A stretch of 64,000 bases of DNA from a candidate division WOR-3 bacterium UBA2202 (GTDB taxonomy: Bacteria; Hydrothermota; 32-111). The DNA is taken from positions 7,904 through 71,903 of the forward strand of contig DCUY01000104.1 of NCBI GenBank assembly GCA_002327905.1, in the 5' to 3' direction. The notes under the pieces are model-generated. The model did not search any database. It was not told where the DNA came from and worked only from the letters and a program-made list of their open reading frames with translations. Position 1 is the first letter of the stretch. Each line of letters opens with the position of its first letter. Shown here one piece after another: positions 2,789 through 59,667 of this stretch. Position numbers and translations under genes: made by a program.

Positions 2789-4095
2789 CCGATTCCTCTG
2801 TAATTTTTTCCGCTCTTTCTTTCAGGAAATAAATTGACAAGATCAATTATAAGGACATCTTTACCTTTATAATTATTCAGTATCTCTCTGTATGAATTAT
2901 CTTTATTAGCGATTACAACCATATCAACTTTTTCAAGCATTTTTATCGGGTCGCTCTCCATCAGAGTCGAAATATGCTTTATCTCCCTCTCGATGAATTC
3001 TTTGTTTGTTCCCATGATATTTGCGAGATGCACATTCTCATCATATATGTAAACATCTTTTCCCTTGCCGAGAAGCTTTTCAACCAAAAGAACCGCTGGG
3101 GATTCTCTCAGGTCATCCGTTCCGTTCTTAAAACTTATTCCGAATATTCCGACTTTAGGCGATTTTTCCTTAATTATATTTTGAAATGCCCATTCAACAT
3201 GAAGATCATTTGAATTCATAATATTCTCCACAACAGGCATGTCCACGCCTATTTTCTTTCCTTCATACGATAAAGCCCTTACATCTTTCGGCAGACATGA
3301 ACCGCCGAACGCGAATCCCGGTCTAAGATAGTATTCTGATATATTGAGTTTCCTGTCCATTATGAAAATATCAATCACTTCTCTTGAATCAATGTTCTTT
3401 CTTTTGCAGAATCTTGACACCTCATTTGCAAAATCCACTTTAAGAGCATGAAATGCATTATTTACATATTTCAGCATCTCAGCGGTCCGTATTGCAGTGA
3501 CAATGAACTGACATTCAAGAAATGAGTACATTTTTCTGATCGTCTTTTCACTTGATTCGCATTCGCATCCGAGAAGGGTGTACGGAGGATTATAAAAATC
3601 ATTGACTGCGTTTCCCTCTCTTAAAAACTCCGGATTGGCGGCAATATCAAAATCCTTTTTTCTCTTCAGTCCTGATTTTGCCTCGACTATTTCAGCATAC
3701 TTGTCTACAGTGCCGGGCATTGAAGTTGACCTTATCAGAACAATGTGAAAAGAATTTTTTTCCTTCAGCACTTCTCCAATCTCTTCGGCAGTTTTGAATA
3801 TATAAGAGAGGTCAACCTCTCCGGTCTCTCTCGACGGAGTGCCTACGCATATCAGAGATATGTTAGTCTCCATCACAGCCTGTTTTATATCGCCGGTAGC
3901 AACAAGATTTTTACTTGCAGTGACTTTTTTGACTATCTCACCCACATAAGGCTCAACTATAGGAGAGACTCCGGCATTGACCTGTTCTATCTTGTCCCTG
4001 CTCACCTCGACTCCCAGAACCTTATAGCCCTGCTCTGCAAGGCAGGCGGCGGATATTATTCCCACATACCCAAGTCCGAATACTGAAATTTTCAT
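2782..4095 (-). CDS. ugd: UDP-glucose 6-dehydrogenase
   Basis: MKISVFGLGYVGIISAACLA NAD-binding N-terminus; catalytic GGSCLPKDVRAL motif; 437 aa. Supplies UDP-GlcA to the adjacent UXS. Confidence 0.75.
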   Translation of the reverse strand: MKISVFGLGYVGIISAACLAEQGYKVLGVEVSRDKIEQVNAGVSPIVEPYVGEIVKKVTASKNLVATGDIKQAVMETNISLICVGTPSRETGEVDLSYIFKTAEEIGEVLKEKNSFHIVLIRSTSMPGTVDKYAEIVEAKSGLKRKKDFDIAANPEFLREGNAVNDFYNPPYTLLGCECESSEKTIRKMYSFLECQFIVTAIRTAEMLKYVNNAFHALKVDFANEVSRFCKRKNIDSREVIDIFIMDRKLNISEYYLRPGFAFGGSCLPKDVRALSYEGKKIGVDMPVVENIMNSNDLHVEWAFQNIIKEKSPKVGIFGISFKNGTDDLRESPAVLLVEKLLGKGKDVYIYDENVHLANIMGTNKEFIEREIKHISTLMESDPIKMLEKVDMVVIANKDNSYREILNNYKGKDVLIIDLVNLFPERKSGKNYRGIGW

Positions 4096-8243: not shown

Positions 8244-11200
8244 TTATCCGAACAGGATGTCATCCATTGATGAGCTCTCCGAAGAGGACTCCTTGGATGA
8301 TTCACTCTCCATTTTTTTAAATGTTTTCTGAAATTCGCTTATCTGCCTCTCTTCTGCAAATTCTTTCACAGGAGATTTCTCAGAGGCAAAGTCAACATGC
8401 TTGACTGCAGGCTTCGACAATGTCTCAAATATATCCTGTCTTTTTTCTTCAGGATGTTTTTCTCTTTGGAATACATCAGTTGTCTTTTTCGATGCCTCTT
8501 CTGATTTTCCCATCCGCAATTCTCTTATCTCTGACTGCAGAATTTTGTTCTCTCTTAACAATCTCTCTGATGTCTCCTCAAGTTCCCTTATTTTCATAAT
8601 GCCGCCTGCAAAAGATTTCTCTTCAGGAATCCTCTTTGCATTTTCAAGCTCCAGTTCTTTTGTCTTCCTGTGAAGGGATTCGATCTCCTCTTTCGCTTTT
8701 ACAATCTGATTGTTCGTTCTTTGAAGAGATTCTCTTAGCTCCTTATTCTCTGAAAACAATTTGATCATCTCCGCATCAGCCCCAGATTTATCCTTTTCTG
8801 ATGCATTGACTTCAGTGAGGCGCTTATTCTCTTCCGTGAGAGTGTTTATTTCTTTTTCAATAGAATTCTTTTTCTTAGAAAGTTCTTCAAGGTGGAGATT
8901 CTCTGCGTCAAGTTTGGAATCAATCTGTTCTTTATCATCTGTCGCCTTCTTCAATTCTCTCTGAAGAGAGCTGTACTGTTCCTGCATCTGTTTTTCTATT
9001 TTTGCTATCTTAACCATCTTTTGAGTTGTATCTGAGAGTTCCTTTTTCAGATTTTCAAGTTTCACCTGATCATCCACAAATCCCTGTTGCATCTCTTGTC
9101 TCTTCGAACTCATGCGGGCTATCTCAGTGTTCTTCGATTTCAATTCCTCTGTAACACTGCTTAATTCCTTTCTGTATGTAAGCAGAGTCTTCTCCTTGTC
9201 TGAAAGTTCACTCTCAATGTTCTTTTTAATATTCTCTATTTTTTCTATTCCAAGAACAGCCGCAAGCTTCCTCTCCTGATTCTTTCTGAGAACAATGATT
9301 TCATCCAGTTTGTTCTTTATTTTCAGAAGTTGATTGAGGCTCATTTTTGCTTCAATTACCTGAGGAGCATCATCCTGCAGAGGCTTGTATTCCCTTATAT
9401 TGGGAAAATCAGTTTCGATTCTCTCCACCTTTTCATTAAGCTCCTCAAAATCCCTCTTCCTCTCTTCAATGATTGTTCTCGTCTTTATCTCTTCCGCTTT
9501 AAGCTCCTCTATCTCCTGTGCAAAACTCTCCTTCTGCAGTCTGACATCCTCTAAATCTACGGAAGCCATTTTTATGCTCATCTGCAAGCCGTTAAGCCTC
9601 TCCTGTGTCTCTTTCAATTCTGCTCCGCATTTGACTGCTTCCGACTCTTTTTCCTTCAGCCATTTTTCAAGTTCGTCTTTGTCTGACCTTAGGGAGACTG
9701 TCTCATTCTTCAGTTCTATCAGTTCTTCATCAAGAGCCTGCTTCTCCTTCTCCATATCTTCAATTGCAGAAGATACTCCCCTCATCCTGTCTTTAATCTC
9801 ATTCTCTATATTGACCTCTCTGTCATGAAGCTTTGCAATTTTAGCATCCATTGACTCTATTTCTTTCTTCTTTGAATCAAATTCTTCATCTATAATGGCA
9901 AGCTGTGTCTCAGCCTCTTCCATTTTAATTTTCATCTCGGAAAATGCTTTTTCTGAGGATTCGTTTTTGTCCTTAATTTGCTTTTCAATATCCTCAAGAA
10001 TCTCTTCCTGCTCAAGCACTTCCAATTTATATTTGTCAATTTCATTCATTATGTGCGTCTTCTCTTCTGTCTTCTTTGCTATCTCCTCCACAAGTGTCTT
10101 TCTTTCAAGCTCTTTTCCGTTGAAATTAGCGAGTATCATTTCAGCATTGGCTTTTAATTTCTCAAGCTCGCTTTTGTCTTCAATTATACTCTCTTTCAAA
10201 GACGAATCCTCTTCCTTGAGATCTTTTATACTCTTATCCAGTTCAATTTTTTCTTTCCTTGTCTTTTCAATATCGTTTATTAGAGCAGTCTTTTGTTTCT
10301 CATACTCAGCCATTTCATTCTTAATCTCCACATATCTGTCGGAGAAACCCGTGTACTCCTTCATTATTTCATCAAGTTTGTTTTGATTCTGTTTTATTGA
10401 GGTCTTTATATTTTCGATTTTCTCGCTTTCGGATTCAACCTCTGCCTCAAGAATCTTTTTCTTCTTCTCATTGGAATTTACCAGAGTATCTATCTCATTG
10501 AAGTAGGATTCCCTGTCTTTTATCTGTTTCTCTTTGTCGGAAAGCATCTTAATCGCATTTTCATAATCCGTTCTTGCCCTCTTAACTTTCTCCTGATATT
10601 CACCAAGCTGTGTTTTTATCTGGTCATATTCCGATTTTGATTCCTGCAGTTCTTTCTCAACCGACTCTTTCTCCTTCTTGATTTTATCTCTTTCCTTTTC
10701 ATTCTGAGAAGTCTGATTCTTAATCTCCTCAGAATGCTTCTTTAACTCCTTTATCTTCTCTCCAATGTCCATCTCCTGATTCAGAGTCTTTCCCATTCCT
10801 GATTCAAGATTGTTCAAATATTCTCTCTTATCGCTTATTTTTCCTTCAAGGTCTTTAAGAGTATTCTTTTCTTCTTCAATTTTCTTTAATAAGATATCCT
10901 GCTCTTTCTTCGCCTTTTCAATTACTGTCCTTGTCTCCCTCTCCTGCTCTTTGTACTCCTCAAAATTGCTTTCAAGGTCAGAGCGCGATTTTTTCAGGTC
11001 TTCAATTGACTTTTTCAGAAAATTCAATTCATTCTCTGATTTTTCCTTTTCAAGTTTTATCTGATTAAGGTTAGTTCCCTCTCTGTCAATTTTGGATTTT
11101 GCCTCTCTAATCAATTCTTCAAATTCCTTTTTCTCTTTTATTGCAGTTTCAATACCATCATTGAGAGTCTGTTTATTATTTTTCTTTTCTTCAACTTCCT

Positions 11201-12521
11201 TTTTTATCTTCTGATATTCCGAGTCAACCTGATACAGTTTGTCGGCAGATTCTTTTTCAAGGAGTTCAAGTTTTGTTTTCTGCTTTTTATACTCCTCCGA
11301 TATTCTTGATAATTGGCCTTTCTCCCTTTCTATATCCCTTCTGACGGCATTTAATTGTCTGCCATTGTCAGCAATTTTTTCGCGCAGTTCCTTCTCTTCG
11401 ACTGATTTCTTCATTATTATCGAGACCAATTCGTTCAAACTCTCTTCATCTGCCTTTATTGTGGCAGTATCTAAAATTCTGTTTTCAACTGCAGGTTTTA
11501 CAGTATCGGAGTCAAAATCGACCATCTCCTCTTTTCTTCCGAAATTGTCGGTCTCTTCAACAAGAGTCTCTTTTGCCGGTTCCTCTTCGGGAGTCATATC
11601 AATCGCATCAAGCATGTCAGAAAGCCCCTCTGTTTCAATTTTGTCTGACATACTCTCTTTTTCCGCAACCGCAGATTCCTCCTCAGTAATTGAAGCACCT
11701 TCTTTTAAGTCATCCAAAGAAATTTCTTTTATTTGCTCTGTTTCAATTATCCGAGAAGCGGCTTTTGGCTCTTCTATCATTGTTTCAGTCTTATCTTCTT
11801 CAGTTTCAAGAACTATTTCTTCAGAGTCCCCGATTTTTATGTCAGTCGGAGCATCTGCATCCAAATCGACATCTTTTATATATGTCACATCATTATCTTC
11901 GCTTTCAAGCTTCCCTATTCCGTCCACAAGAGAATCAAGAGATTCTGTCTCCATAATACTTTCAGCTGACTTGACTTCCTGTTCAATGCCGCTCTGTTCA
12001 GGCATCTTCTCCTCTTTCTCTGCTTCAGTCCTTTTTATTTCCGGTGTTTCATCATTAATTTCAATCCCAAGATGAGTTTCTTCCTGAACCGCATCCAGAG
12101 AATCAGTCAAATCCATTAAATCCGAAAGGGTATTCTCTAAATTGTCTTCATTCTCTTCTTTTTTAATTTCTTCCGCAGAGACAGAGAGTCCTTCAGTTTT
12201 AGATTCATCAGCATCCTGCGCTGAAGCTTTATTGTCCTGCATTTCATCTATTGAATCAAGCATATCCGTGAGGGAATCTATGGATGATTCATCAGTCTCC
12301 GCTTGTGTTTGAGAATCAAGATCGGAAATTATATCCTCCAAACCTGAAGAGATATCTTCAATTGTCTCATCTTGGCTATCCGTCTTGTCCTGCTTGAGCA
12401 CAGCTCTCTCTTTTCTGTCTAAGGAAGCGGGTTTTATCCCGCGCCTTTTCTTTTTCAGGACAATCGGCGCAGATTTTTTATCGGATTTTTTTTCATCGTC
12501 TCCGTTTTTCTTAAAAAACAT
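8244..12521 (-). CDS. Giant (1425 aa) acidic coiled-coil protein of unknown function
   Basis: Uninterrupted ORF with a short basic N-terminus (KKSDKKSAPIVLKKKRRGIK) and no signal peptide or TM segment. An acidic 300-aa region carries five SLxDxLDxID-like motifs. It is followed by roughly 1000 aa of E/K-rich heptad-like sequence and an acidic, Ser-rich tail. The purine-rich coding strand generates long spurious Ser/Phe-rich ORFs on the opposite strand. Confidence 0.6.
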   Translation of the reverse strand: MFFKKNGDDEKKSDKKSAPIVLKKKRRGIKPASLDRKERAVLKQDKTDSQDETIEDISSGLEDIISDLDSQTQAETDESSIDSLTDMLDSIDEMQDNKASAQDADESKTEGLSVSAEEIKKEENEDNLENTLSDLMDLTDSLDAVQEETHLGIEINDETPEIKRTEAEKEEKMPEQSGIEQEVKSAESIMETESLDSLVDGIGKLESEDNDVTYIKDVDLDADAPTDIKIGDSEEIVLETEEDKTETMIEEPKAASRIIETEQIKEISLDDLKEGASITEEESAVAEKESMSDKIETEGLSDMLDAIDMTPEEEPAKETLVEETDNFGRKEEMVDFDSDTVKPAVENRILDTATIKADEESLNELVSIIMKKSVEEKELREKIADNGRQLNAVRRDIEREKGQLSRISEEYKKQKTKLELLEKESADKLYQVDSEYQKIKKEVEEKKNNKQTLNDGIETAIKEKKEFEELIREAKSKIDREGTNLNQIKLEKEKSENELNFLKKSIEDLKKSRSDLESNFEEYKEQERETRTVIEKAKKEQDILLKKIEEEKNTLKDLEGKISDKREYLNNLESGMGKTLNQEMDIGEKIKELKKHSEEIKNQTSQNEKERDKIKKEKESVEKELQESKSEYDQIKTQLGEYQEKVKRARTDYENAIKMLSDKEKQIKDRESYFNEIDTLVNSNEKKKKILEAEVESESEKIENIKTSIKQNQNKLDEIMKEYTGFSDRYVEIKNEMAEYEKQKTALINDIEKTRKEKIELDKSIKDLKEEDSSLKESIIEDKSELEKLKANAEMILANFNGKELERKTLVEEIAKKTEEKTHIMNEIDKYKLEVLEQEEILEDIEKQIKDKNESSEKAFSEMKIKMEEAETQLAIIDEEFDSKKKEIESMDAKIAKLHDREVNIENEIKDRMRGVSSAIEDMEKEKQALDEELIELKNETVSLRSDKDELEKWLKEKESEAVKCGAELKETQERLNGLQMSIKMASVDLEDVRLQKESFAQEIEELKAEEIKTRTIIEERKRDFEELNEKVERIETDFPNIREYKPLQDDAPQVIEAKMSLNQLLKIKNKLDEIIVLRKNQERKLAAVLGIEKIENIKKNIESELSDKEKTLLTYRKELSSVTEELKSKNTEIARMSSKRQEMQQGFVDDQVKLENLKKELSDTTQKMVKIAKIEKQMQEQYSSLQRELKKATDDKEQIDSKLDAENLHLEELSKKKNSIEKEINTLTEENKRLTEVNASEKDKSGADAEMIKLFSENKELRESLQRTNNQIVKAKEEIESLHRKTKELELENAKRIPEEKSFAGGIMKIRELEETSERLLRENKILQSEIRELRMGKSEEASKKTTDVFQREKHPEEKRQDIFETLSKPAVKHVDFASEKSPVKEFAEERQISEFQKTFKKMESESSKESSSESSSMDDILFG

Positions 12522-15629: not shown

Positions 15630-17135
15630 TTATCTTATCAAAAAATGCTTTTCTTTGATTGTTCTATTATTCTCTTTCAGTTTTATAAAGTATATCCCGT
15701 TCTTCAAGTGTCTGATGTCTGTTTTGTGCGTTCCGCTTGCTTTTGATTCTTCTTTGATTACCTCTCTGCCTGATATGTCATAAACTGTCAATGTGCCTTG
15801 TGTATTTGTATTCCATATTATGTATTGATTTTGTATTTGCATTTTTAGCTCATGGCTCACAGCGCATGGCACAAGGTTTTTTGCGCACGGCTCATGGCTC
15901 TCTTCTATCCCATTCACTGCCACCGAGTCTTCAAAGATTCTTGTGCATTCATCTCCAACACTCTGGCCGCAGCCGCTGAAGATTATCTCATCATAGCCGT
16001 TCTTATTAAAGTCATGACACTTTATATGGCTCTGGATTGTATTGTATGTAGGGTCAGTGTATTCCCAGCTCATTTCAAACTGATTGTCTCCTGTTGACTC
16101 CCATACCTCTATATGTCTCCCGCCACATATCACAAGTTCATTCAAACTATCCCCATCAACATCTCCATAATCCATATCCCCTGCATACACTAAGCTGTAA
16201 TCTGTATCTACTTCAAAGTCTCTTCTCCATATTGTATCATACACTCCCGTGCCGCTTGTGTCCTCATAAATTATAAATGCATAAGAATTAGGTGGACCTA
16301 AATAATTTAGTTGATATTTCATTATCTCATTTGTTCCATCTCTGTCTATATCAGGTAATATCAATAGCGCCCTAGATCCATATCCTCCTTCAGTTAATGA
16401 ATCCTGTTTTATGAAAGTGGTATCTGATAAATTTTCTGATTCAAAGAAATACAAATAATTCTCCGGTGATGTTATCACCATCTCTGTTAATCCATTTCCA
16501 TCTATATCACCAATATCCATTGCACTTTGTACTCTTGTACTTTCTGCAAATGTATTCAATATTTCATACTGATTATCTCCCGTACAGGTAAAATAATACC
16601 AGCCATAACCATTAGTCGGTGTTGTTATTTCAGGTATGCCTCCACCATAAATCCTTTCTATTCCATCACCTTTTAGATTGTTGGAAATGCTTAAGTAATA
16701 AACAGATCTATACAGTGTATCGGATTGCCATACTAAATTGTCAAAAAATGATGTGCTGTCAATCTGCTCTAATATCATCAGATGCATATATTCATCATCT
16801 CCTGGCATCCCAATAAGCAAATCTTTGAGTCCATCTTGATCAAAGTTACCAGTGCCTGAAGTCCATATAAGATTCGTATCTACAATGGAATCAATCAATA
16901 CATAAGTATTTTCACTTTGGTATTCATAAAATAATATTTTTCGTCCATTATTTATTATAAGCTCTTCATCAAAATCATTATTGTAATCAGATATTTGTTG
17001 TCTTGTAAAAGACATACTTGGATGCACCCCTCTCTGTATATAACTTATCTCTTCAAATGATTCTGCGCGTGTTTTCAAGAATAAGCATAATGTAATAAAA
17101 AACAATAATCTAAATATTTTCATTTTTTTCCTCAT
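15630..17135 (-). CDS. Secreted FG-GAP/VCBS-repeat protein with T9SS C-terminal sorting domain
   Basis: Signal peptide MRKKMKIFRLLFFITLCLFLKTRA. Repeated DxDGxG calcium-binding-like motifs (DQDGLKDLLIG, DIDGNGLTEMV, DVDGDSLNELVI, DFNKNGYDEIIF). C-terminus ...GTLTVYDISGREV...GIYFIKLKENNRTIKEKHFLIR, typical of a type IX secretion CTD. Confidence 0.7.
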   Translation of the reverse strand: MRKKMKIFRLLFFITLCLFLKTRAESFEEISYIQRGVHPSMSFTRQQISDYNNDFDEELIINNGRKILFYEYQSENTYVLIDSIVDTNLIWTSGTGNFDQDGLKDLLIGMPGDDEYMHLMILEQIDSTSFFDNLVWQSDTLYRSVYYLSISNNLKGDGIERIYGGGIPEITTPTNGYGWYYFTCTGDNQYEILNTFAESTRVQSAMDIGDIDGNGLTEMVITSPENYLYFFESENLSDTTFIKQDSLTEGGYGSRALLILPDIDRDGTNEIMKYQLNYLGPPNSYAFIIYEDTSGTGVYDTIWRRDFEVDTDYSLVYAGDMDYGDVDGDSLNELVICGGRHIEVWESTGDNQFEMSWEYTDPTYNTIQSHIKCHDFNKNGYDEIIFSGCGQSVGDECTRIFEDSVAVNGIEESHEPCAKNLVPCAVSHELKMQIQNQYIIWNTNTQGTLTVYDISGREVIKEESKASGTHKTDIRHLKNGIYFIKLKENNRTIKEKHFLIR

Positions 17136-17144
17136 ATAATAATG

Positions 17145-17176
17145 GAGCGGAATAAATCAATTAATTTATTCCGCTC
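17145..17176. terminator. Perfect 13-bp inverted repeat hairpin between the two T9SS cargo genes
   Basis: GAGCGGAATAAAT-caatta-ATTTATTCCGCTC, lying downstream of the 17195 stop on the minus strand. Flanks are A/T-rich. Confidence 0.4.
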
Positions 17177-17194: not shown

Positions 17195-20185
17195 TTACTT
17201 TATTATATTTATTCTGCTTGTCTCTGTCTCATCTCCATTCTTTAGAACTGCGAAGTAAACTCCGGTTTTATAGATATTGCTCAATTTTATACTGTTTGTT
17301 CCTTTGTTTACTTTTGCAATTATAGATGTTACTTCTCTGCCTGAGACATCATACACTCTTACTTCAACATTGACTTCTTTTTCGGATGTATAATTAATAG
17401 ATACTTTATCTTTGATCGTAAAGATATTTTTGTTTATCTCTTTTGATTCTGTTATTGGTGCAAATATCTTTATCTTATTTGATACTGCAACCACTTCTTC
17501 TCCGTCTGTTTCGTACTGGTAAACCAATACCTCTGCATCTCTATTTGGGTTGCCTCTCTTCCTGTCTATGCTTACAACAATGCTGTAATCCTGATATGTC
17601 TCCTTTGGAAGTGTTATCTCAGTAGTATCAGGTCTGTTGGTATGTCCTGTTACTACTGCATATACTTCTCCGTCTATCTGGATTATCTGTGGCTTTACTG
17701 GGCTTCCCTCCGAGGTAATTACCTTAACCGTATAATTCATCTCAGGATTGAGTCCGTTTATTGTTGTATTAAGTTGTTCAACAGGTTCTTTAACTGCTAT
17801 GTATTCATAAAGAGGAGATGTTGTTACCGTTTCTACTGTATCCTCCGGTTCCGATTCGATAAATGTAAATGCAGTAGGATAATAGTCCCTTGTCATCCAT
17901 TTAATCCTATAGTTCCCGTTGCTTCCTTCACTCCATATATGATAGCCTCTTACCTTCGTCATCAATAAAGGTTTTGTCTCAAATTCAGTCGTATGTATTG
18001 AGTCTGCTCCTGTATATACACTTATATCGTTTCCGCTGTAGTTGGTTATGAGTTTGTTGCTGTTATTGATATAGTTTATGAATATACCGTTGCTTGCTTT
18101 GGGATACTCATTCTTTCCCATTGTTACATTCACCTTTACTGCATTTGCATCAATTATTCCTTTACTCAATTTTCTTCTGTATATGTCTTTTGTTTCGTCT
18201 GTATTTACCGCCTCATATACAAATGATGTTGCATCTCCATAATAATCTGTTGTAGGTGCATTACAAATTTGGTTGGCGTTGCTGACTGTAGTTGGCTGAG
18301 TCCATTGCATAATGTTTGTGTTCCAAATCTTAGCTATGTAGTTTGTTGATGTATCTATAAATCCTATTACTTGTGCGGTAAAATCTGTTGTATTATACAA
18401 TGAAAACACAGGTGATTTCACAGGAACTTTATCATATTCACCCAAATAAGATACAATAGTGTCATAGTAAATACCGTCTGTATTCAACTCATTCATGCTT
18501 GTTAATATGTAATCTCCCTCTTCTCTCTGAAGATAACTATGATTTATGTATCCAAGATATGTCTGGCTTGTCGTACTATTATAACCCAGAACCGGCTCGC
18601 TCAGCAATATCGCAGGATTTACCAATGTATCCTCAGGTATCCACGGACTTGATTTGATAGAATAACTGTAAGAGCTCATCCCATCTCTCCATACTGCTAT
18701 CAGTCCGCTCGCAGTTCTTGTTAGTACTGGCTCAGTTCCTCTGCCCAATACCTCAAGATCCCATGTCTGTCCAAAATCTATACTCCTTCCATACACCACA
18801 CTTTCACCTGTCGTATAAACCATGTCCATCTCGTCAGTTTTTAGCTTTCTTACTATATGCTCCTGATTGTTTGTTCCGAAGGTTTCAGAAGTATTGCTCC
18901 ACATATATGCGCCTATTGTTGACCTGTATGCAACATATCCCACTCCGTCGATTGTAAGTTTCAGCGGTCTGTTGCTATTCAGATATGCCGGTATGAAAAC
19001 CCATCCATACTCATCCGTTATCCCCTGATAATAGAATCCTCCCGGTTGATTGTCTGTCAGTGTTACTGTCAAGCCCGGAATTCCTGTTATTCCCTTCGTT
19101 TCATCTTCTCTTGATGCCTCTATATATATCATATTATCCTTTATTACAGGAACCTCTGTCGGCTTCCCAACACGCTCAATCACCTTATAATCGACATCTA
19201 TTTCATGTCTCTCTATCTGTGTTAGCTCATTAGTATTTTGAACCACAAAATAGTATGGCAGTGTATCTGTAGCAGTAAAAGCAATTCTAATTACTCCATT
19301 TACATCGGCACTCTTTTCTGCTGTTATAATCTGTCCCTTATTATTCTCAATATGTGCTGATGCATTTGTAAATGGATTACCATCTGTACATCTCGTTAAT
19401 CTGATGCCCACTGTATCTAAAAATTCATATTTCACTGTTCGGTCAACAATCTGTGATACAAAAAAACTGTCCATGTCAGGTTCACTACTTATATCATTGT
19501 AGTCGCTCGTATGCTCTTGCACAAATTGCTTTTCAGTATATATGTATACTCTTATCGGTTTTGATGTATCTTCAAATCTAAAAGTGTCACCCAATATTAT
19601 ATAATTGCCATTTTGAATGTTCATTATTATTGCTTTTTCTGGAGCTTGTTCAGTTTGATTACTTGTTGTATCATATTTTACGATATTGTTGTTTACAATT
19701 ATTCGCCAGTAATAATGATTGACACCATCACGCCCCCTTCCTCCTGTTAACTGTATCCCTATTGAATTCCCATCATTTAAATGCAATTCTAGTGTGTTAT
19801 AATTATACAGATTATACCAATTATATACCACTAATTGAATATTGCCATGATCGAAAAGGGCATTTGACAGTAATTCCGGTATCTCCTGATAAACTCCACC
19901 TCTTATTAAATGAGTATCTGCCGGTAAAAAAACTTTTAGATATTTATCTTCTTCATATATATCTATTCCACTAATTGAATTAAACACCGTCCACTTGGAA
20001 TCAATTATACTATCATTGAATCCATCTGAGATATTCTTTATTAAATCTGCTTGTAAATTGCCGATTGGCAATAATGATAACAACATCAATCCAGCCAATA
20101 CTAACATAAATCGTAAGTATCGGGGGGGGGGGGGGTTAAACGCTTTTCGAAATTGTTCATACTTTCCTCCTTTGGTTAAATTCAA
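17195..20185 (-). CDS. Large secreted protein with T9SS C-terminal sorting domain; 5' end carries a C14 homopolymer (candidate phase-variable gene)
   Basis: 996-aa frame. Signal-peptide-like RFMLVLAGLMLLSLLPIGNLQA. C-terminus ...VRVYDVSGREV...GVYFAVLKNGDETETSRINIIK (T9SS CTD). The ORF-track start is a TTG at 20185 with no SD. The only SD-equipped start (AGGAGG 20170..20165, ATG 20160..20158) is out of frame by one nucleotide across the C14 tract. Confidence 0.7.
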   Translation of the reverse strand: MNLTKGGKYEQFRKAFNPPPPRYLRFMLVLAGLMLLSLLPIGNLQADLIKNISDGFNDSIIDSKWTVFNSISGIDIYEEDKYLKVFLPADTHLIRGGVYQEIPELLSNALFDHGNIQLVVYNWYNLYNYNTLELHLNDGNSIGIQLTGGRGRDGVNHYYWRIIVNNNIVKYDTTSNQTEQAPEKAIIMNIQNGNYIILGDTFRFEDTSKPIRVYIYTEKQFVQEHTSDYNDISSEPDMDSFFVSQIVDRTVKYEFLDTVGIRLTRCTDGNPFTNASAHIENNKGQIITAEKSADVNGVIRIAFTATDTLPYYFVVQNTNELTQIERHEIDVDYKVIERVGKPTEVPVIKDNMIYIEASREDETKGITGIPGLTVTLTDNQPGGFYYQGITDEYGWVFIPAYLNSNRPLKLTIDGVGYVAYRSTIGAYMWSNTSETFGTNNQEHIVRKLKTDEMDMVYTTGESVVYGRSIDFGQTWDLEVLGRGTEPVLTRTASGLIAVWRDGMSSYSYSIKSSPWIPEDTLVNPAILLSEPVLGYNSTTSQTYLGYINHSYLQREEGDYILTSMNELNTDGIYYDTIVSYLGEYDKVPVKSPVFSLYNTTDFTAQVIGFIDTSTNYIAKIWNTNIMQWTQPTTVSNANQICNAPTTDYYGDATSFVYEAVNTDETKDIYRRKLSKGIIDANAVKVNVTMGKNEYPKASNGIFINYINNSNKLITNYSGNDISVYTGADSIHTTEFETKPLLMTKVRGYHIWSEGSNGNYRIKWMTRDYYPTAFTFIESEPEDTVETVTTSPLYEYIAVKEPVEQLNTTINGLNPEMNYTVKVITSEGSPVKPQIIQIDGEVYAVVTGHTNRPDTTEITLPKETYQDYSIVVSIDRKRGNPNRDAEVLVYQYETDGEEVVAVSNKIKIFAPITESKEINKNIFTIKDKVSINYTSEKEVNVEVRVYDVSGREVTSIIAKVNKGTNSIKLSNIYKTGVYFAVLKNGDETETSRINIIK
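20122..20135. repeat. G14 (C14 on the coding strand) homopolymeric tract inside the 5' end of the T9SS cargo gene
   Basis: Counted directly: cggggggggggggggtt at 20121..20137. Encodes PPPP in the annotated frame. Confidence 0.9.
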
Positions 20186-20188
20186 AAT

Positions 20189-20217
20189 ATTATAGTAAAT
20201 TTATTTTACCTTGTCAA
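20189..20217 (-). promoter_or_regulatory. Sigma70-type promoter for the T9SS cargo gene
   Basis: Minus strand: TTGACAAGG (20217..20212) - 17 nt - TATAAT (20194..20189). Confidence 0.5.
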
Positions 20218-20245: not shown

Positions 20246-22114
20246 TTACCGTGGACACACACTAAACCAGTCGAAGGATGAATTCTCATTTTCAGAGAAT
20301 GTCATGATATATTGATTCTTTTCAGATACGGTAATAAATTCTCCTTTTGAAGGACTAAAGAGTATTCTGCTCTTTTCAATCACATTTCCCAAAGAATCAA
20401 TTGTTGACAATTTCACTGTGATTCCATCTGATTTTTGAACTCTTTTATCAGGAAAGAATACTATCTCAAAGGTGTCATCCGCCTCTGCATTAAAAATCAG
20501 AGTGTCATCCAAATAGGATGGAATGACTATTTTTCCGTTCCAAAAAACAACTCTGTCAATATATTTCAGAATGTGCGGATTTGCTTTCTCTCTATATTCA
20601 TATTTGAAGCATTTTATCGAATACTCATTTGAAATCGAAAACGGAAGTATCCCGTACATTGATGTGTAATATCCGGATTTCCCCTCTTTTGACAACAGCT
20701 TCACAGGAAAATTAAAGAGGGACTCTGCTTCAATCAATTTAAGATGCAAAGCAAGATATGAAATGTCAGTCATATTCTCTATAAGAGAGACATACAAAAT
20801 ATCCGATTCCTTCATTTTCGAACTCTTCAACAAAAACGGTTCTGCCCGACTCTTCTCTGCCACAGTTCTAAATCCCCATTCTCCCAAGAAGTATTCTTTT
20901 GCATCAGATGAACAGTTTTCTTTGCTGTCAAACTGCAATTTGCTATAACTGTTCGTTTGTATTAAATCGCTTGTCAGAAGAAGAGATGTCAGGAGTAAAC
21001 TTGAAAATATGCCGAATGAAAGAAACTTCAGTCCGTTGTCTTTGAAGAGTATTATTGCCAAAATAATGAAATATGCAAAGAGGTACCTTCCTATAACCAT
21101 AGGAAAGAATAAGACTATAGCGGCTCCTGTTCCGGCTGTTAGAAGAAGCATTGCCTTTCTCTCTCTGCTTTGAAACATTGACGAACATGCGTTAATTCCT
21201 GAAAAGAGAAGAAGGAAGAGAGTGACTTTCGAAAAAGGATTTCCCGCTGAAGATGAATATGCAAAATAGAGTATTAAAGTCAGTAGAAGAGAGACAATTC
21301 TGAATTTGATTCCGCCTTTAACTTTTTTGAAAACCTCAGGAAAAGCAAACAGACCTGTTAAAACCAGAAGAGCAAGAAATTTCTCAAATGTCTTATGGTA
21401 ATTGAATATTTTTTCAGACCCGTACCATTTTATCGACCTGAACAAAGTGGGGGCAAGCTGATAATGGTTCAATAAGAGAATCACAAGCAGAGTGAAAACG
21501 AACAAGAGTGCAAGAAGAAACATATTCTTTTTATCCCTGCTCTTTTCAAATGCCAAAAAGCAGATAGGAAAAAGAATAAAAGAGACATAAGAGAAGAGAA
21601 GAGAGAGAATTGAAAAAACTGAGAATAATATAAAATTAAAGATTCTTCCGTCTTCGTAAAATCTGATTAAAAAATAAATTCCGAAGATCATAAGAACAAA
21701 AGCGGGTATATCAGCCATGAATGAATTGGCATAGACTCCTATAGCAGGAGAAAAAAGAATAAGAGCAGTGACAGCAAGAGGATGCTTCGTTTTGAAATAC
21801 TTCAGTATTGCCTCAAGAGGAAAGAGCATTGATGCAAATAGCATGTAAATAAATATATGGACAAATCTGTGCGAAAAATTCAGTCTCTCAAGGAGAGCAT
21901 AAAAAAGTATCGGCACAATGGAATGCGTCCCGTCCGTTATTTTTACTGTCTCTCCGTGAAAAGGCCAGTCTCTGTCAAGAAATGCCCTTACCCCGTTTTC
22001 AGAGATGAATTTTCCGTTGCCAATATAAATAATATCATCATAATTCATCTCCCTACTTGAGAATATGCAAAAAAAGGATATAATAAACAGAAATAATAAA
22101 AACCGTTTGACCAT
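20246..22114 (-). CDS. Polytopic membrane protein, GT-C-fold glycosyltransferase-like (ArnT/PMT-like) with C-terminal soluble domain
   Basis: About 12 predicted hydrophobic helices in the first 400 aa, then a roughly 220-aa soluble C-terminal domain; 622 aa. Family assignment is by architecture only. Confidence 0.4.
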   Translation of the reverse strand: MVKRFLLFLFIISFFCIFSSREMNYDDIIYIGNGKFISENGVRAFLDRDWPFHGETVKITDGTHSIVPILFYALLERLNFSHRFVHIFIYMLFASMLFPLEAILKYFKTKHPLAVTALILFSPAIGVYANSFMADIPAFVLMIFGIYFLIRFYEDGRIFNFILFSVFSILSLLFSYVSFILFPICFLAFEKSRDKKNMFLLALLFVFTLLVILLLNHYQLAPTLFRSIKWYGSEKIFNYHKTFEKFLALLVLTGLFAFPEVFKKVKGGIKFRIVSLLLTLILYFAYSSSAGNPFSKVTLFLLLFSGINACSSMFQSRERKAMLLLTAGTGAAIVLFFPMVIGRYLFAYFIILAIILFKDNGLKFLSFGIFSSLLLTSLLLTSDLIQTNSYSKLQFDSKENCSSDAKEYFLGEWGFRTVAEKSRAEPFLLKSSKMKESDILYVSLIENMTDISYLALHLKLIEAESLFNFPVKLLSKEGKSGYYTSMYGILPFSISNEYSIKCFKYEYREKANPHILKYIDRVVFWNGKIVIPSYLDDTLIFNAEADDTFEIVFFPDKRVQKSDGITVKLSTIDSLGNVIEKSRILFSPSKGEFITVSEKNQYIMTFSENENSSFDWFSVCPR

Positions 22115-27862: not shown

Positions 27863-28537
27863 TTATGGCTTCCTCATTATAAACAAATATTTAAAACCTC
27901 TTAAATAAAAATTAAACTGCCTTGCTCTGTTGTGCCAAACTCCCGTGTTTGACGTTTGATTGTGTCTTGTTAAACAAACAATATCCATTGGCTCAAAATG
28001 TTTTTCCAATCTTTGCCACATCAAAAATCCAACAGCCGTAAATTTCTTTTTAATCCATTGATCGGCAATAACCCAGCCCATAACTTTTCCGGGTTTCAAA
28101 ATTCTTGCAATTTCGGAAGCGGTCTTTTCCAATTCATCATAAAATTCTGTTTTCTCGCAAGAAATTTTACCGATACATTCCTTGTTGTCAGAATAGTTGA
28201 TATTGTCGGAGTATGGCGAATCAATAAAAACAAAATCAACAGAATTGTCCGCAAGCGGGATTTTCCGAGAATCGTTTTTAATTACATCGGGTCTAACAAT
28301 ATTCAAATCATAACCGATTACTTTTCGGTTCAATTCTTTTGCAACATCAATCGTTGTTCCGCTCCCGCACATCGGATCGACAACTAAATCACCTTCTTTG
28401 GTATATCTTTGGAGTAAATTCCAAATGACAAAAGCCGGCGTTACGCCATTGTATTTATTGTTTCCATGTGGCTTGTCGCCATAATTTTGTCTCGGAAAAT
28501 CCCAAAGTGTTGTTGATTCAATAATCAAGTCAGACAT
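27863..28537 (-). CDS. DNA (amino) methyltransferase, N6-adenine/N4-cytosine type, small
   Basis: DPMCGSGTT (motif I, FxGxG-like) followed by FVFIDSPYSD (motif IV, D/S-PP-Y-like); 224 aa. Confidence 0.7.
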   Translation of the reverse strand: MSDLIIESTTLWDFPRQNYGDKPHGNNKYNGVTPAFVIWNLLQRYTKEGDLVVDPMCGSGTTIDVAKELNRKVIGYDLNIVRPDVIKNDSRKIPLADNSVDFVFIDSPYSDNINYSDNKECIGKISCEKTEFYDELEKTASEIARILKPGKVMGWVIADQWIKKKFTAVGFLMWQRLEKHFEPMDIVCLTRHNQTSNTGVWHNRARQFNFYLRGFKYLFIMRKP

Positions 28538-29442: not shown

Positions 29443-30714
29443 TTATTTTTCCATTATCAAAATGTATTCTGTTGGATAAACAGAAACTCTATTTTTATTA
29501 TTTATGCTCGCAAATTTACCCGTCTTTTCGTCTCGAACGGACGGCAAATTTTTTGATGGGATTTCTCTTTTGATAATATCGGCGATTTTTAATCCCAAAT
29601 TTTGTAATTGCTCAACAAAAACCTCCGCATTAAGTATTTCAACGCCTTTTAAGCTCGTATTGCCAATAACAATGCAGGCTTTCCCACCTTTCTTTAATAT
29701 TCTTTTCATCTCACTAAACACTTGATTCATTTCACTAAAATATGTCGAAACTTCCTCGGCAGTTTTTTTATCTTTTTTTAGCAATTCTGTTCTGATATTT
29801 TCTGCAATCAAACTGTTGAGAAATAAATCTTTTTTACAATGATACGAAGTTCCAATAAAACGTTTTCGAAAATCACTTAAGTCATTAGTGTATTCTAACC
29901 ACAATGCAGTGAGCTGGTGTAAGTCGGCGTATTCGTAAGAGGTTACATAAGGAGGCGAAGTGACAATCAAACTAACGCTATTATCTTTTGCCGGAATTGT
30001 TCTTGCATCCGTGCAAATTACCTTGCTCGGAATTTTCAAATAACCTTTTTCTGATAACAATTCAAATAATCGTGCGTTGCCTCGCAACATCATTTTTATT
30101 TGTTTCAAAAATGTTTTAATCGGCTCCGATGGTTTTTTTTCAAAATCTCTCGTCGGTTTATTGCTTTTTTGTAGCCAGATTGAGCAATTTTTGAGAATGT
30201 TTGAAAATCCGCAGAAAAAGAAATCTTGGACATCTTGATCTTTTATTTTTGAAATCTCAGCAAAAATAAAGGCGAGTTTTCTTTTTTCTTCTGGCCTAAA
30301 CCAATAGTCAATTCTTTCGTGTTCGGGGGTTTTTACTTTTGTTTTTTCGCTGTAAGCTTCCAATTTCTTTTGAAAAATTGTAAATTCCTTTTCAATTTTA
30401 ACAGGATCAATCGCCGTGATTTTTGCTTTTGTAATTAAAACAGCGACTGGGTTAATATCAACGGCAATTGATGGCCGTCCCATAATTTTTGATTCAACAA
30501 GAGTTGTTCCGCAACCGCCGAACGGATCAACAATAAAATCACCTGCTCGTGTATATTTTTCCACCAAGCGAGAAACTATTTGCGGAATAAATTTTGCTGG
30601 ATAACGATGATAACCATGCGTAATATATGCCGTATCTTTCCTCGTTTTATCAGAAAACGCCCACGAGGGATCGATTTTTGTTTTATTCAATAATGAAGTA
30701 ATAGTCAGACTCAT
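29443..30714 (-). CDS. DNA (amino) methyltransferase, alpha-class architecture
   Basis: HRYPAKFIPQIV...DFIVDPFGGCGTT (AdoMet motif I) near the N-terminus; LIVTSPPYVTSYEY (motif IV, SPPY) about 180 aa later; 423 aa. Confidence 0.8.
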   Translation of the reverse strand: MSLTITSLLNKTKIDPSWAFSDKTRKDTAYITHGYHRYPAKFIPQIVSRLVEKYTRAGDFIVDPFGGCGTTLVESKIMGRPSIAVDINPVAVLITKAKITAIDPVKIEKEFTIFQKKLEAYSEKTKVKTPEHERIDYWFRPEEKRKLAFIFAEISKIKDQDVQDFFFCGFSNILKNCSIWLQKSNKPTRDFEKKPSEPIKTFLKQIKMMLRGNARLFELLSEKGYLKIPSKVICTDARTIPAKDNSVSLIVTSPPYVTSYEYADLHQLTALWLEYTNDLSDFRKRFIGTSYHCKKDLFLNSLIAENIRTELLKKDKKTAEEVSTYFSEMNQVFSEMKRILKKGGKACIVIGNTSLKGVEILNAEVFVEQLQNLGLKIADIIKREIPSKNLPSVRDEKTGKFASINNKNRVSVYPTEYILIMEK

Positions 30715-58749: not shown

Positions 58750-59667
58750 TCACTTTTTCAGTCTTTTATAGCCGTCTTCAAGAATAATCATGAAGTTTTC
58801 CTTCTTATCATTTATGAACGGATAATCCTCAACGAAATTCATTATCTTATCCCTGCTGTCAAGCACTTCCTTTATAATGTTCAAACAAATTGATTCGTCC
58901 ATTTTCATGGCATTTGCCAATCTTAAAAAATCATCGGCTTTCAGTTTGTTTTTTTTACCGTTTACGGTCAAAGCGCTGTCCTCTTCATTTTTAATGACAA
59001 GTTTTGAAGAAACGATATCATAGCACGGAGAAAGAACTTTCTCATTGTCATCATCATATAAGAATCCGTAATTCTTAAGATGTCCATCCCCGTTTCCCAC
59101 TATAAAATTCATAACAACAATCTTAAAAAAGTTTTGAATTTCTAAGCCCGGAAACTTTGCGTATGCTCTTATCGCTTCTCCGACCCTTTCCGCGCTTCCT
59201 GTATATTTGTCATCCGCCTGAATCACGGACTGCATATCTTCAAAATGAATCTTTTTATTTCCTTTTCTGTCAAATCGCCTCACAATATATGCGCTTGAAC
59301 CGTCACGAAGAGTTACGATTCCGTGAAGAGCGGTCTTAACTCCGGCTATTTCAAATATTGTCATGCACATATTTTCATTTTGAGGCATTTCGGGGAATCT
59401 GTCCGTCTGCGGTTTAAGAATGAATTGACCTCCCGCATAAACAACTTCAACCTCTCCATTTTTTCTGTTTATTTTTGTCGAGAGTTTCGGCTGAACACCC
59501 GATATTGAAAGTTTTCCGACACACTCTTGCGCCTTCTCGGAAATTTCATTGAGAGAAAATCTTACGGAAGGAATTTTTGAAACTGAAAAGACCCGTCTCA
59601 CGCATTTTTCATGCATGAGATCCTCACCCTTCAAAGGAAGGCCGCATGATATGCAGTATCTGTTCAC
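58750..59667 (-). CDS. HipA-family serine/threonine kinase core (HipT-like toxin of a HipBST-type module)
   Basis: ISGVQPKLS (E. coli HipT has ISGYQPKLQ) and VGNGDGHLKNYG (catalytic-loop xGNxDxHLxN); 305 aa; lacks the HipA N-subdomain; N-terminal C-x2-C...H-x2-C. Confidence 0.7.
   Translation of the reverse strand: MNRYCISCGLPLKGEDLMHEKCVRRVFSVSKIPSVRFSLNEISEKAQECVGKLSISGVQPKLSTKINRKNGEVEVVYAGGQFILKPQTDRFPEMPQNENMCMTIFEIAGVKTALHGIVTLRDGSSAYIVRRFDRKGNKKIHFEDMQSVIQADDKYTGSAERVGEAIRAYAKFPGLEIQNFFKIVVMNFIVGNGDGHLKNYGFLYDDDNEKVLSPCYDIVSSKLVIKNEEDSALTVNGKKNKLKADDFLRLANAMKMDESICLNIIKEVLDSRDKIMNFVEDYPFINDKKENFMIILEDGYKRLKK

Follow-up and report, generated by a model that had tools for sequence, protein, structure and literature searches.

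A poly-C tract in the leader of a predicted type IX cargo gene of candidate division WOR-3, a probable phase-variation switch in a family with three repeat types

In a 64-kb stretch of DNA from the candidate division WOR-3 bacterium UBA2202 (contig DCUY01000104.1; hereafter the window, to which all coordinates refer), a gene on the minus strand encodes a large cargo protein with a sorting domain of the type IX secretion system (T9SS). A run of exactly 14 G on the plus strand (20122..20135; C14 in the coding direction) separates the start codon of this gene, led by a Shine-Dalgarno (SD) motif, from the hydrophobic core of its signal peptide. We consider it likely that this tract is the switch of a multigene contingency (phase-variable) family, operated by slipped-strand mispairing. 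A phase-variation switch had been proposed at this site from the letters of the window alone (below, the original prediction); the comparison with related genomes supported the proposal and widened it to a paralogous family with three types of repeat. All tract lengths given here are those of consensus contigs.

The elements of the switch and the beginning of the reading frame behind it, all on the minus strand, are as follows (nt, nucleotides; aa, amino acids; ORF, open reading frame).

20217..20212 (TTGACA) and 20194..20189 (TATAAT), minus strand: sigma-70-type promoter with a 17-nt spacer, 12/12 consensus match
20183..20185, minus strand: TTG chosen by the ORF finder, without SD, judged not to be the real start
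20166..20171, minus strand: SD AGGAGG, 5-nt spacer to the ATG; AAGGAGG is kept in all relatives
20158..20160, minus strand: ATG taken as the true start codon of the precursor; seven lineages have kept the start together with a basic leader of 27 nt
20122..20135, minus strand: poly-C tract C14, the putative hypermutable switch, with 25 nt of leader between the ATG start and the tract
20113..20121, minus strand: the flank GATACTTAC, invariant in all poly-C relatives, read as D-T-Y (OFF frame) or (R)-Y-L (ON frame)
20101..20103, minus strand: OFF-frame TAG closing a 19-aa OFF peptide; the stop falls 4-8 codons past the tract in all seven lineages
20095..20123, minus strand: predicted RNA hairpin with arms CCGAUACUUAC / GUUAGUAUUGG, the internal AUG in its loop and the OFF-frame UAG in its 3' arm
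20048..20107, minus strand: signal-peptide hydrophobic core and predicted cleavage site, MLVLAGLMLLSLLPIGNLQA / DLIK, judged by eye; begins with the internal ATG
17195..20122, minus strand: main reading frame of the cargo, stop included; its first codon, CGA, takes up the final C of the tract

The poly-C relatives of the gene share this arrangement. In an alignment of their promoters, each showed TTGAC at -35 together with an A/T-rich -10 element. The SD, the start codon and the 9-codon basic leader were found in every poly-C relative, and the 27-nt leader ended with TAAC[TC] in the seven poly-C lineages. Since about half of the window genes have an SD-like motif at -8 to -13, the presence of an SD is informative in this organism. 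Such SD usage also makes membership of the Bacteroidota improbable. The original prediction had put the AGGAGG motif at 20170..20165; the motif and its 5-nt spacer stand, while the position is 20171..20166, one base away. Even L087, a homologue of 25% protein identity, has kept the GATACTTAC flank. The tract itself, whose place shortly after the SD-led ATG was confirmed, is the sole G/C homopolymer longer than 6 in the window, where the next-longest runs of G or C have a length of 6; the expected number of occurrences of a G10 pattern was 0.01 in dinucleotide-preserving shuffles.

Translated from the ATG, the window sequence gives MNNFEKRLTPPPPDTYDLC and then meets the TAG at 20103..20101, as had been predicted; judged by its frames, the window copy is OFF. 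The long frame encodes RYLRF-MLVLAGLMLLSLLPIGNLQA-DLIK... and the body of the protein, up to the stop at 17195. The ATG reaches this frame with one nucleotide more (C15) or two nucleotides fewer (C12). Both lengths, named in the original prediction, do fuse the frames in silico, although the ON allele actually seen was CCA-C12. In terms of the slot between TAAC[TC] and GATACTTAC, we found in silico that 12 nt lead to a 19-aa peptide, 11 or 14 nt to 48-49 aa, and 13 nt to the full precursor.

Variation of the tract was observed among nearly identical genomes. The window was compared with four further assemblies of its species, of which JGI supplied two and ENA and Logan one each. These showed 99.96-99.99% identity to the window over 7-9 kb, with 0-2 mismatches, and the tract was the only indel in each pairwise comparison. 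Their alleles were the following.

CCA-C10 (L002, L013): the other OFF frame
CCA-C11 (L001): the same OFF frame as in the window
CCA-C12 (L011): in frame

The species of the window thus has four alleles in five assemblies (C14, CCA-C11, CCA-C10 twice, CCA-C12). Because these genomes otherwise differ at 1-2 positions per 8 kb, the tract is hypermutable; by this comparison it mutates orders of magnitude faster than its surroundings. The in-frame allele (L011 / P0009) reads MNNFEKRLTTPPPRYLRFMLVL..., and its gene call is a 988-aa protein that starts with MNNFEKRLTTPPPRYLRFMLVLAGL... An uninterrupted C14 was unique to the window assembly, the other four having CC-A-C10..12. It corresponds to the ON allele minus the A, or to the C11 allele with an A>C change, and may be a real mutation or a miscall. 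Without the A, the pure run grows from 12 to 14, which would raise its mutability if the change is real.

In a second species, with a protein of ~60% identity to that of the window over the conserved three-quarters of its length, we found C11 (OFF) in three assemblies (L008, L014, L144) and C12 in two more. One C12 allele (L012 / P0015) is in frame and reads MENSKKRVTTPPPRYLQYMLVL...; the other C12 contig begins inside the leader. The comparison of orthologous loci, which the original prediction had proposed as a check, therefore yielded tract lengths that differ between near-identical assemblies and an in-frame allele in two species. A profile search with the in-silico ON-form N-termini returned only three short truncated proteins and no further ON alleles.

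The tract belongs to a family of such repeats. A genome scan combined with a profile search (E<1e-30) gave 33 cluster representatives, with several paralogues per metagenome-assembled genome (MAG). In the family the repeat is located between the SD-led start and the hydrophobic core of the signal peptide, and it is of the C, CT or G type.

C8: L003/L138, L143, L026/L087
C9: L004-L007, L098, L145
C10: L044
CT: (CT)10 in L009/L136/L137; (TC)12 in L010/L135; (TC)15 in L139; (TC)14 in L141
G10: L140, L142

Two to three paralogues with their own repeats were observed in single MAGs (Uz-U4-10, UBA6260 and DPZ-2 bins_157); those of DPZ-2 bins_157 are three in number and have three repeat types, (CT)10, G10 and C8. 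The CT copies differ from the ON state by one repeat unit, either more or fewer. A further 90% cluster of the CT type holds the ON calls P0176 (MRKIKNFKSISFFSLSLSLSLSLSNTIVLL...) and P0178, both of which read ...SLSLSLSL..., together with the truncated OFF calls P0025 and P0175. Within the WOR-3 loci that were fetched, long repeats were confined to these leaders. In the C8 lineages the long frame has no ATG, GTG or TTG start ahead of the hydrophobic core (…RYLHLLLLVLFMFVFPLKTFS/D), and therefore translation must enter through the tract. A scan of metagenomes for C7-N0-3-GATACTTAC returned mostly chance matches or an unrelated methyltransferase locus; at least five family loci were among the matches listed.

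The two G10 copies are arranged differently. In L140 and L142 the G10 (3279..3288) lies inside an SD-led upstream ORF whose stop is ~10 nt before a separate ATG, and this downstream ATG opens a complete signal peptide (MKWLMMVISVL...). The G10 tract may act by translational coupling or through a leader peptide, not by frame fusion.

We see in these data the signature of a contingency locus, because repeats of different chemistries stand at one position, several copies occur per genome, and ON and OFF alleles are found together. A repeat in the 5' coding part that is long enough to be hypermutable (for G/C runs, about 7-8 or more), toggling of the frame in silico, ON/OFF polymorphism among near-identical genomes, a product predicted to be secreted (by its T9SS sorting domain) and the presence of several loci per genome were all observed.

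As a contingency switch the locus would operate as follows. Transcription would come from a strong, constitutive-looking promoter, and ribosomes would initiate at the SD-led ATG and read the 9-codon basic leader into the C run. A slot of 13 nt between TAAC[TC] and GATACTTAC would fuse the leader to the hydrophobic core of the Sec signal peptide; in this ON state a beta-propeller protein would be made, exported and passed to type IX secretion via its C-terminal sorting domain. With a slot of 12 nt (as in the window) or 11 nt, translation would stop after 19 or 48 codons, and no cargo would appear. Slipped-strand mispairing in replication would add or remove C's and so produce ON and OFF cells in every population, while paralogues with their own C, CT or G repeats would lead each cell to display a different subset of the family. 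It is our inference that, within a single population, slippage occurs reversibly and at a high rate, that the T9SS secretes the ON form, and that an advantage is gained from switching.

Several observations count against such a switch. Counted from the first base of the start codon, GATACTTAC is reached after exactly 39 nt in the modal allele of all seven poly-C lineages, a distance made up of the 27-nt leader and a 12-nt slot. The slots differ in composition (ATCG-C8, CT-C10, A-C11, C9-ATC, C12), with a C content of 8-12 and a whole C run of 8 to 14. Every poly-C lineage is thus modally one base short of ON, a bias that random switching does not predict. The alleles observed had slots of 11, 12 or 13 nt, and none was longer than ON. 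A plain slippage switch has no need of the invariant GATACTTAC or of the adjacent hairpin. No variation was seen in the lineages with short tracts, C9 being found in six assemblies and C8 in three lineages (with at most two records each). Finally, the differences among homopolymers of 10-14 nt could in part be consensus errors, especially in contigs of low coverage.

The bias has a simpler possible cause within a contingency switch. Periodic selection for ON would anchor the slot near 13 nt, and long G/C runs tend to contract. In all lineages the frame of the 12-nt slot gives a peptide of 17-20 aa. The other OFF frame gives a peptide of 33-49 aa with a basic head and a hydrophobic tail, which could be harmful and favour the frame with the early stop. 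The conserved early stop in the 39-nt frame may therefore explain the one-base-short state. Double coding of the flank, as D-T-Y (OFF) and R-Y-L (ON), would freeze its nine bases.

The same facts can be read as programmed recoding, which we ranked second, behind the contingency switch, and regard as unlikely. Here the 12-nt slot would be the functional ground state, and expression would depend on transcriptional slippage that adds one C or on a -1 slip of tRNA-Pro on C CCC CCC. The ribosome would be slowed by polyproline, expression would be low or regulated, and the variation of DNA length would be a side effect. The 39-nt offset from start to GATACTTAC, kept though the C run varies from 8 to 14 and kept even in the homologue of 25% identity, speaks for this reading. 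So do the C9 tract, identical across six assemblies, and the length of every run, at least 8 nt, which is about that of the RNA-DNA hybrid. An in-phase C CCC CCC heptamer is present in every poly-C allele, though this is trivial, as runs of at least 8 always contain one. PPP(P)D, which is read in the OFF frame, is a strong stalling motif that depends on elongation factor P (EF-P).

The invariant GATACTTAC and the hairpin also fit recoding. The hairpin was predicted after the run in five lineages, where GATACTTAC forms its 5' arm and pairs with GUUAGUAUU; the basal pairs are CC..GG or AUC..GAU depending on the lineage, which is one compensatory change. However, the C8 lineages have no hairpin, and where present it begins 0-1 nt past the last in-phase heptamer instead of the usual 5-9 nt. 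It is also located downstream of the run, whereas hairpins that stimulate slippage sit upstream. Known programmed slippage is mostly on runs of A or T, so that a run of at least 8 nt is compatible with transcriptional slippage but the base C is atypical (PMC1088944, PMC3711429). With respect to -1 frameshifting, we found the in-phase heptamer, but neither a conserved structure 5-9 nt downstream nor an out-of-frame junction fixed in all members. In-frame DNA alleles exist in two species, and the CT paralogues, one unit above or below ON, are beyond rescue by a -1 frameshift or by slippage of a single base in the transcript. Since the early stop of the 39-nt frame offers another cause for the bias, we doubt that the one-base-short leader is a selected ground state from which the cargo is normally expressed by poly-C recoding. 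If it were, the output would be tied to the status of translation elongation (e.g. EF-P activity), and changes of the DNA tract would be a second, heritable layer gating the secretion of the surface protein.

Three related possibilities were set aside. The hairpin as a frameshift stimulator was ruled out by its spacing. Pairing of GATACTTAC with the start region (AAGUAU/AUACUU) was ruled out as it occurs in two lineages only. Termination and reinitiation at ATGTTAG, where the OFF stop overlaps the internal ATG, is possible in five lineages; since a usable internal start is absent from the C8 lineages, we did not accept it as the general mechanism.

A sequencing or assembly error would mean that the tract is truly in frame everywhere, the gene intact and the different lengths miscalls of a homopolymer. 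Homopolymers of 10-14 are indeed prone to error, the C14 unique to the window differs from the CCA-C12 ON allele by the loss of the A alone, and coverage is low in some contigs (2.7x for L010/L135; 17x for L138). Yet C8, C9 and the CT repeats are within the range where calls are reliable (for C8 and C9, with short reads), C9 is out of frame in six independent assemblies (JGI, ENA, NCBI, Logan), and the CT repeats are also out of frame in MAGs of different projects. The presence of three repeat types at one leader position in the paralogues is left unexplained as well, and we consider an error of this kind very improbable.

We give as little weight to the possibility that there is no switch and that translation begins regardless of tract length at the TTG 20185, with the tract read as Pro-Pro-Pro-Pro, or at the internal ATG 20107..20105. 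The TTG frame is open through the tract in the window assembly, and the internal ATG is the start picked by gene callers (P0001). The original prediction had discounted the TTG as having no SD and lying at or upstream of the transcription start, which agrees with what we found: the TTG is 3 nt past the -10 hexamer of the 12/12 promoter and has no counterpart in other lineages, and same-species alleles with C10 have a main frame that is closed ahead of the tract. In all likelihood the TTG start is an artefact of the ORF finder. The internal ATG, in turn, has no SD, lies in the hairpin loop and would yield a signal peptide without a basic n-region, while the C8 lineages have no ATG, GTG or TTG at all before the hydrophobic core.

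Least probable of all is a decaying pseudogene with the frameshift as an inactivating mutation: a relative with an interrupted tract ends after 185 aa and two others at 168 aa on contigs of 53-92 kb, but the ~970-codon body, with many invariant residues, is intact here and in more than 10 relatives down to 42% identity (25% for L087), the promoter, SD, leader and repeat are all conserved, and in-frame alleles exist.

The truncated relatives are of two kinds. The copy from 'candidate division TA06 bacterium 32_111' and those from three further assemblies (P0063, P0179-P0181) have the interrupted tract (…SNSHPNRYL…) and an ORF of 171-185 aa. The two that end at 168 aa (P0049, P0182) have a common foreign tail, PAFVFRGIIL. 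These truncated copies could be dead copies, insertion sites or N-domain cassettes.

We now turn to the cargo protein and its neighbours, with the following additional features.

17210..17404, minus strand: T9SS type A C-terminal sorting domain, TIGR04183 32.2 bits (cutoff 23)
17145..17176, minus strand: 14-bp stem-loop after the stop, likely a terminator or RNA-stability element
15630..17135, minus strand: downstream neighbour, an FG-GAP repeat protein that has a signal peptide and a T9SS sorting domain of its own

The body of the cargo has ~970 aa without interruption. By inspection, we recognised in the ON form a basic n-region, a hydrophobic core and LQA/D, the first of which depends on in-frame fusion to the upstream leader. 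The TIGR04183 match bears out the T9SS C-terminal domain named in the original prediction. The PF18962 score for the same domain was 26.6, just under the cutoff of 27, and PF18962 was matched by 21 of the 29 family members. Its closest protein matches come from candidate division WOR-3 MAGs, under the annotation 'T9SS type A sorting domain-containing protein'. No T9SS machinery was recognised among the scanned window proteins, to which the search was confined.

The ~900-aa body had no other Pfam match in the window protein or in 28 relatives. An NCBIfam scan of the window protein found the sorting domain only, and a profile search of PDB gave one insignificant match. An AlphaFold model made with a 29-sequence alignment had a mean predicted local distance difference test (pLDDT) score of 76 and was confident at residues ~190-850 and in the sorting domain; the model from a 6-sequence alignment was unusable (pLDDT 38). 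Foldseek, run on the AlphaFold model, pointed to arrays of macroglobulin-type immunoglobulin-like domains. The cargo also contains one Asp-box, SIDFGQTW. One may reasonably guess, but no more than guess, that the cargo is a surface protein that binds or cleaves glycans.

We also observed that the N-terminal ~200-300 residues (19400..20047 in the window) are swapped among family members (P0001-P0006, L044, L087), with the C-terminal three-quarters conserved. One N-terminal type is specific to the window, a second is common to P0002, P0005 and P0006, and a third, in P0003, P0004 and L044, consists of LVIVD beta-propeller repeats. This suggests domain shuffling on top of on/off switching.

In all related loci the cargo gene is followed by the FG-GAP neighbour. 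At the intergenic position of the stem-loop, L003, L004, L010 and L012 have a strong hairpin that differs in sequence. Directly upstream of the switch promoter, at 20246..22114 on the minus strand, is the gene of a 622-aa multi-pass membrane protein whose match to the LIC_10190 family is weak; the same-species assemblies share this gene, and in other lineages it is not upstream of the cargo. Elsewhere in the window, all on the minus strand, are a 1425-aa ORF at 8244..12521, two N6/N4-type DNA methyltransferase-like genes (27863..28537 and 29443..30714) and a HipA-like kinase gene (58750..59667). The 1425-aa ORF has no Pfam match and a weak coiled-coil (SMC-like) similarity, and it edges a polysaccharide-synthesis cluster (a Wzz/tyrosine-kinase-like protein, nucleotide-sugar dehydrogenases, a cytidylyltransferase). 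Rfam and tRNA scans of the window found no RNA genes.

The unrelated locus of ~50% GC has poly-C runs of 7, 9, 10 or 11 in otherwise near-identical contigs (L029, L043, L054, L077, L105, L113, L120, L128, L130, L132; e.g. 9184..9194 in L105). The run lies within a 467-aa ORF, where it codes for ...WGGGQ...; this ORF adjoins phage-like genes. By its sequence the ORF looks like a C5 cytosine DNA methyltransferase, and the locus resembles a phase-variable methyltransferase.

The names of the isolates and samples presumably refer to hot springs, oil reservoirs and tailings. A switch logic of the pathogen style would be found in an uncultured lineage, candidate division WOR-3, of the Fibrobacteres-Chlorobi-Bacteroidetes (FCB) group. 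A whole family of large T9SS cargo proteins with their own repeats suggests that surface bet-hedging matters in free-living, non-host communities as well, with possible gains against phages or grazers, or in attaching to polysaccharides and using them. The switch is hidden by gene callers, which place the starts of these genes wrongly in a systematic way; the OFF copies in databases all begin at internal or spurious codons. Reads of deposited metagenomes could give the fractions of ON and OFF in nature. The conserved one-base-short frame with its invariant flank is also a clean test case for DNA slippage versus transcriptional or translational recoding.

Studies of repeat-driven phase variation have dealt almost entirely with host-adapted pathogens and commensals (PMC11868660, PMC3711429). 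In the literature that we searched, nothing combined phase variation, type IX secretion and homopolymeric tracts, nothing connected WOR-3 with a T9SS, and no repeat-mediated switching was reported for WOR-3. None of the papers that mention both T9SS and phase variation, in those parts of them that were available, appears to describe repeat-switched T9SS cargo, in line with the original prediction, which knew of no such case.

Compared with known systems, the locus shares with the slippage and -1 frameshifting of dnaX and insertion sequence (IS) elements a conserved out-of-frame junction, a homopolymer of at least 8 nt, a fixed offset and a nearby hairpin (PMC1088944, PMC3711429). It differs from them in having a run of C and not of A or T, a hairpin that does not fit in spacing or side, in-frame alleles, and CT paralogues.

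In the contingency loci of Campylobacter jejuni, Neisseria and Haemophilus, poly-G/C tracts of 8-12 are located in the 5' part of genes for surface structures; there are several loci per genome, and the lengths vary between close relatives (PMC8437040, PMC6321876, PMC5084427, PMC11868660). These bacteria are host-adapted pathogens or commensals. The poly-C lineages of WOR-3, in contrast, have one preferred OFF frame and an invariant flank.

A close parallel is offered by the pilus genes bbr_0113 and bbr_1889 of Bifidobacterium breve, where a G tract splits the ORF of the signal peptide from the body and slippage in replication has been demonstrated; the reference genome has the OFF state, the annotated start is an internal one without support, and the equivalents in related strains have tracts of 8-11 (PMC9187656). 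As in WOR-3, a G/C tract separates a short upstream ORF, with SD and start, from a long body. On the other hand, the product in B. breve is a Gram-positive LPXTG pilin and in WOR-3 the predicted T9SS cargo of a diderm. The whole signal peptide of B. breve is upstream of the tract, whereas in WOR-3 the tract splits the n-region from the hydrophobic core.

In Helicobacter pylori, the genes oipA/hopH, sabA, hopZ and babB have CT repeats in the region coding for the signal peptide. Like these outer-membrane protein genes, the WOR-3 genes form a paralogous surface family with a repeat between the start and the signal-peptide core, and the frame sets ON or OFF; the same layout is seen in the CT relatives L009, L010, L139, L141, P0176 and P0178. 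Unlike H. pylori, the WOR-3 organism is uncultured and apparently not host-associated, its products are predicted type IX cargo and not beta-barrel outer-membrane proteins, and its family mixes three repeat types (C, CT and G). The proposed mechanism is of a well-known kind; the phylum, the class of T9SS cargo and the mixed-repeat family are new.

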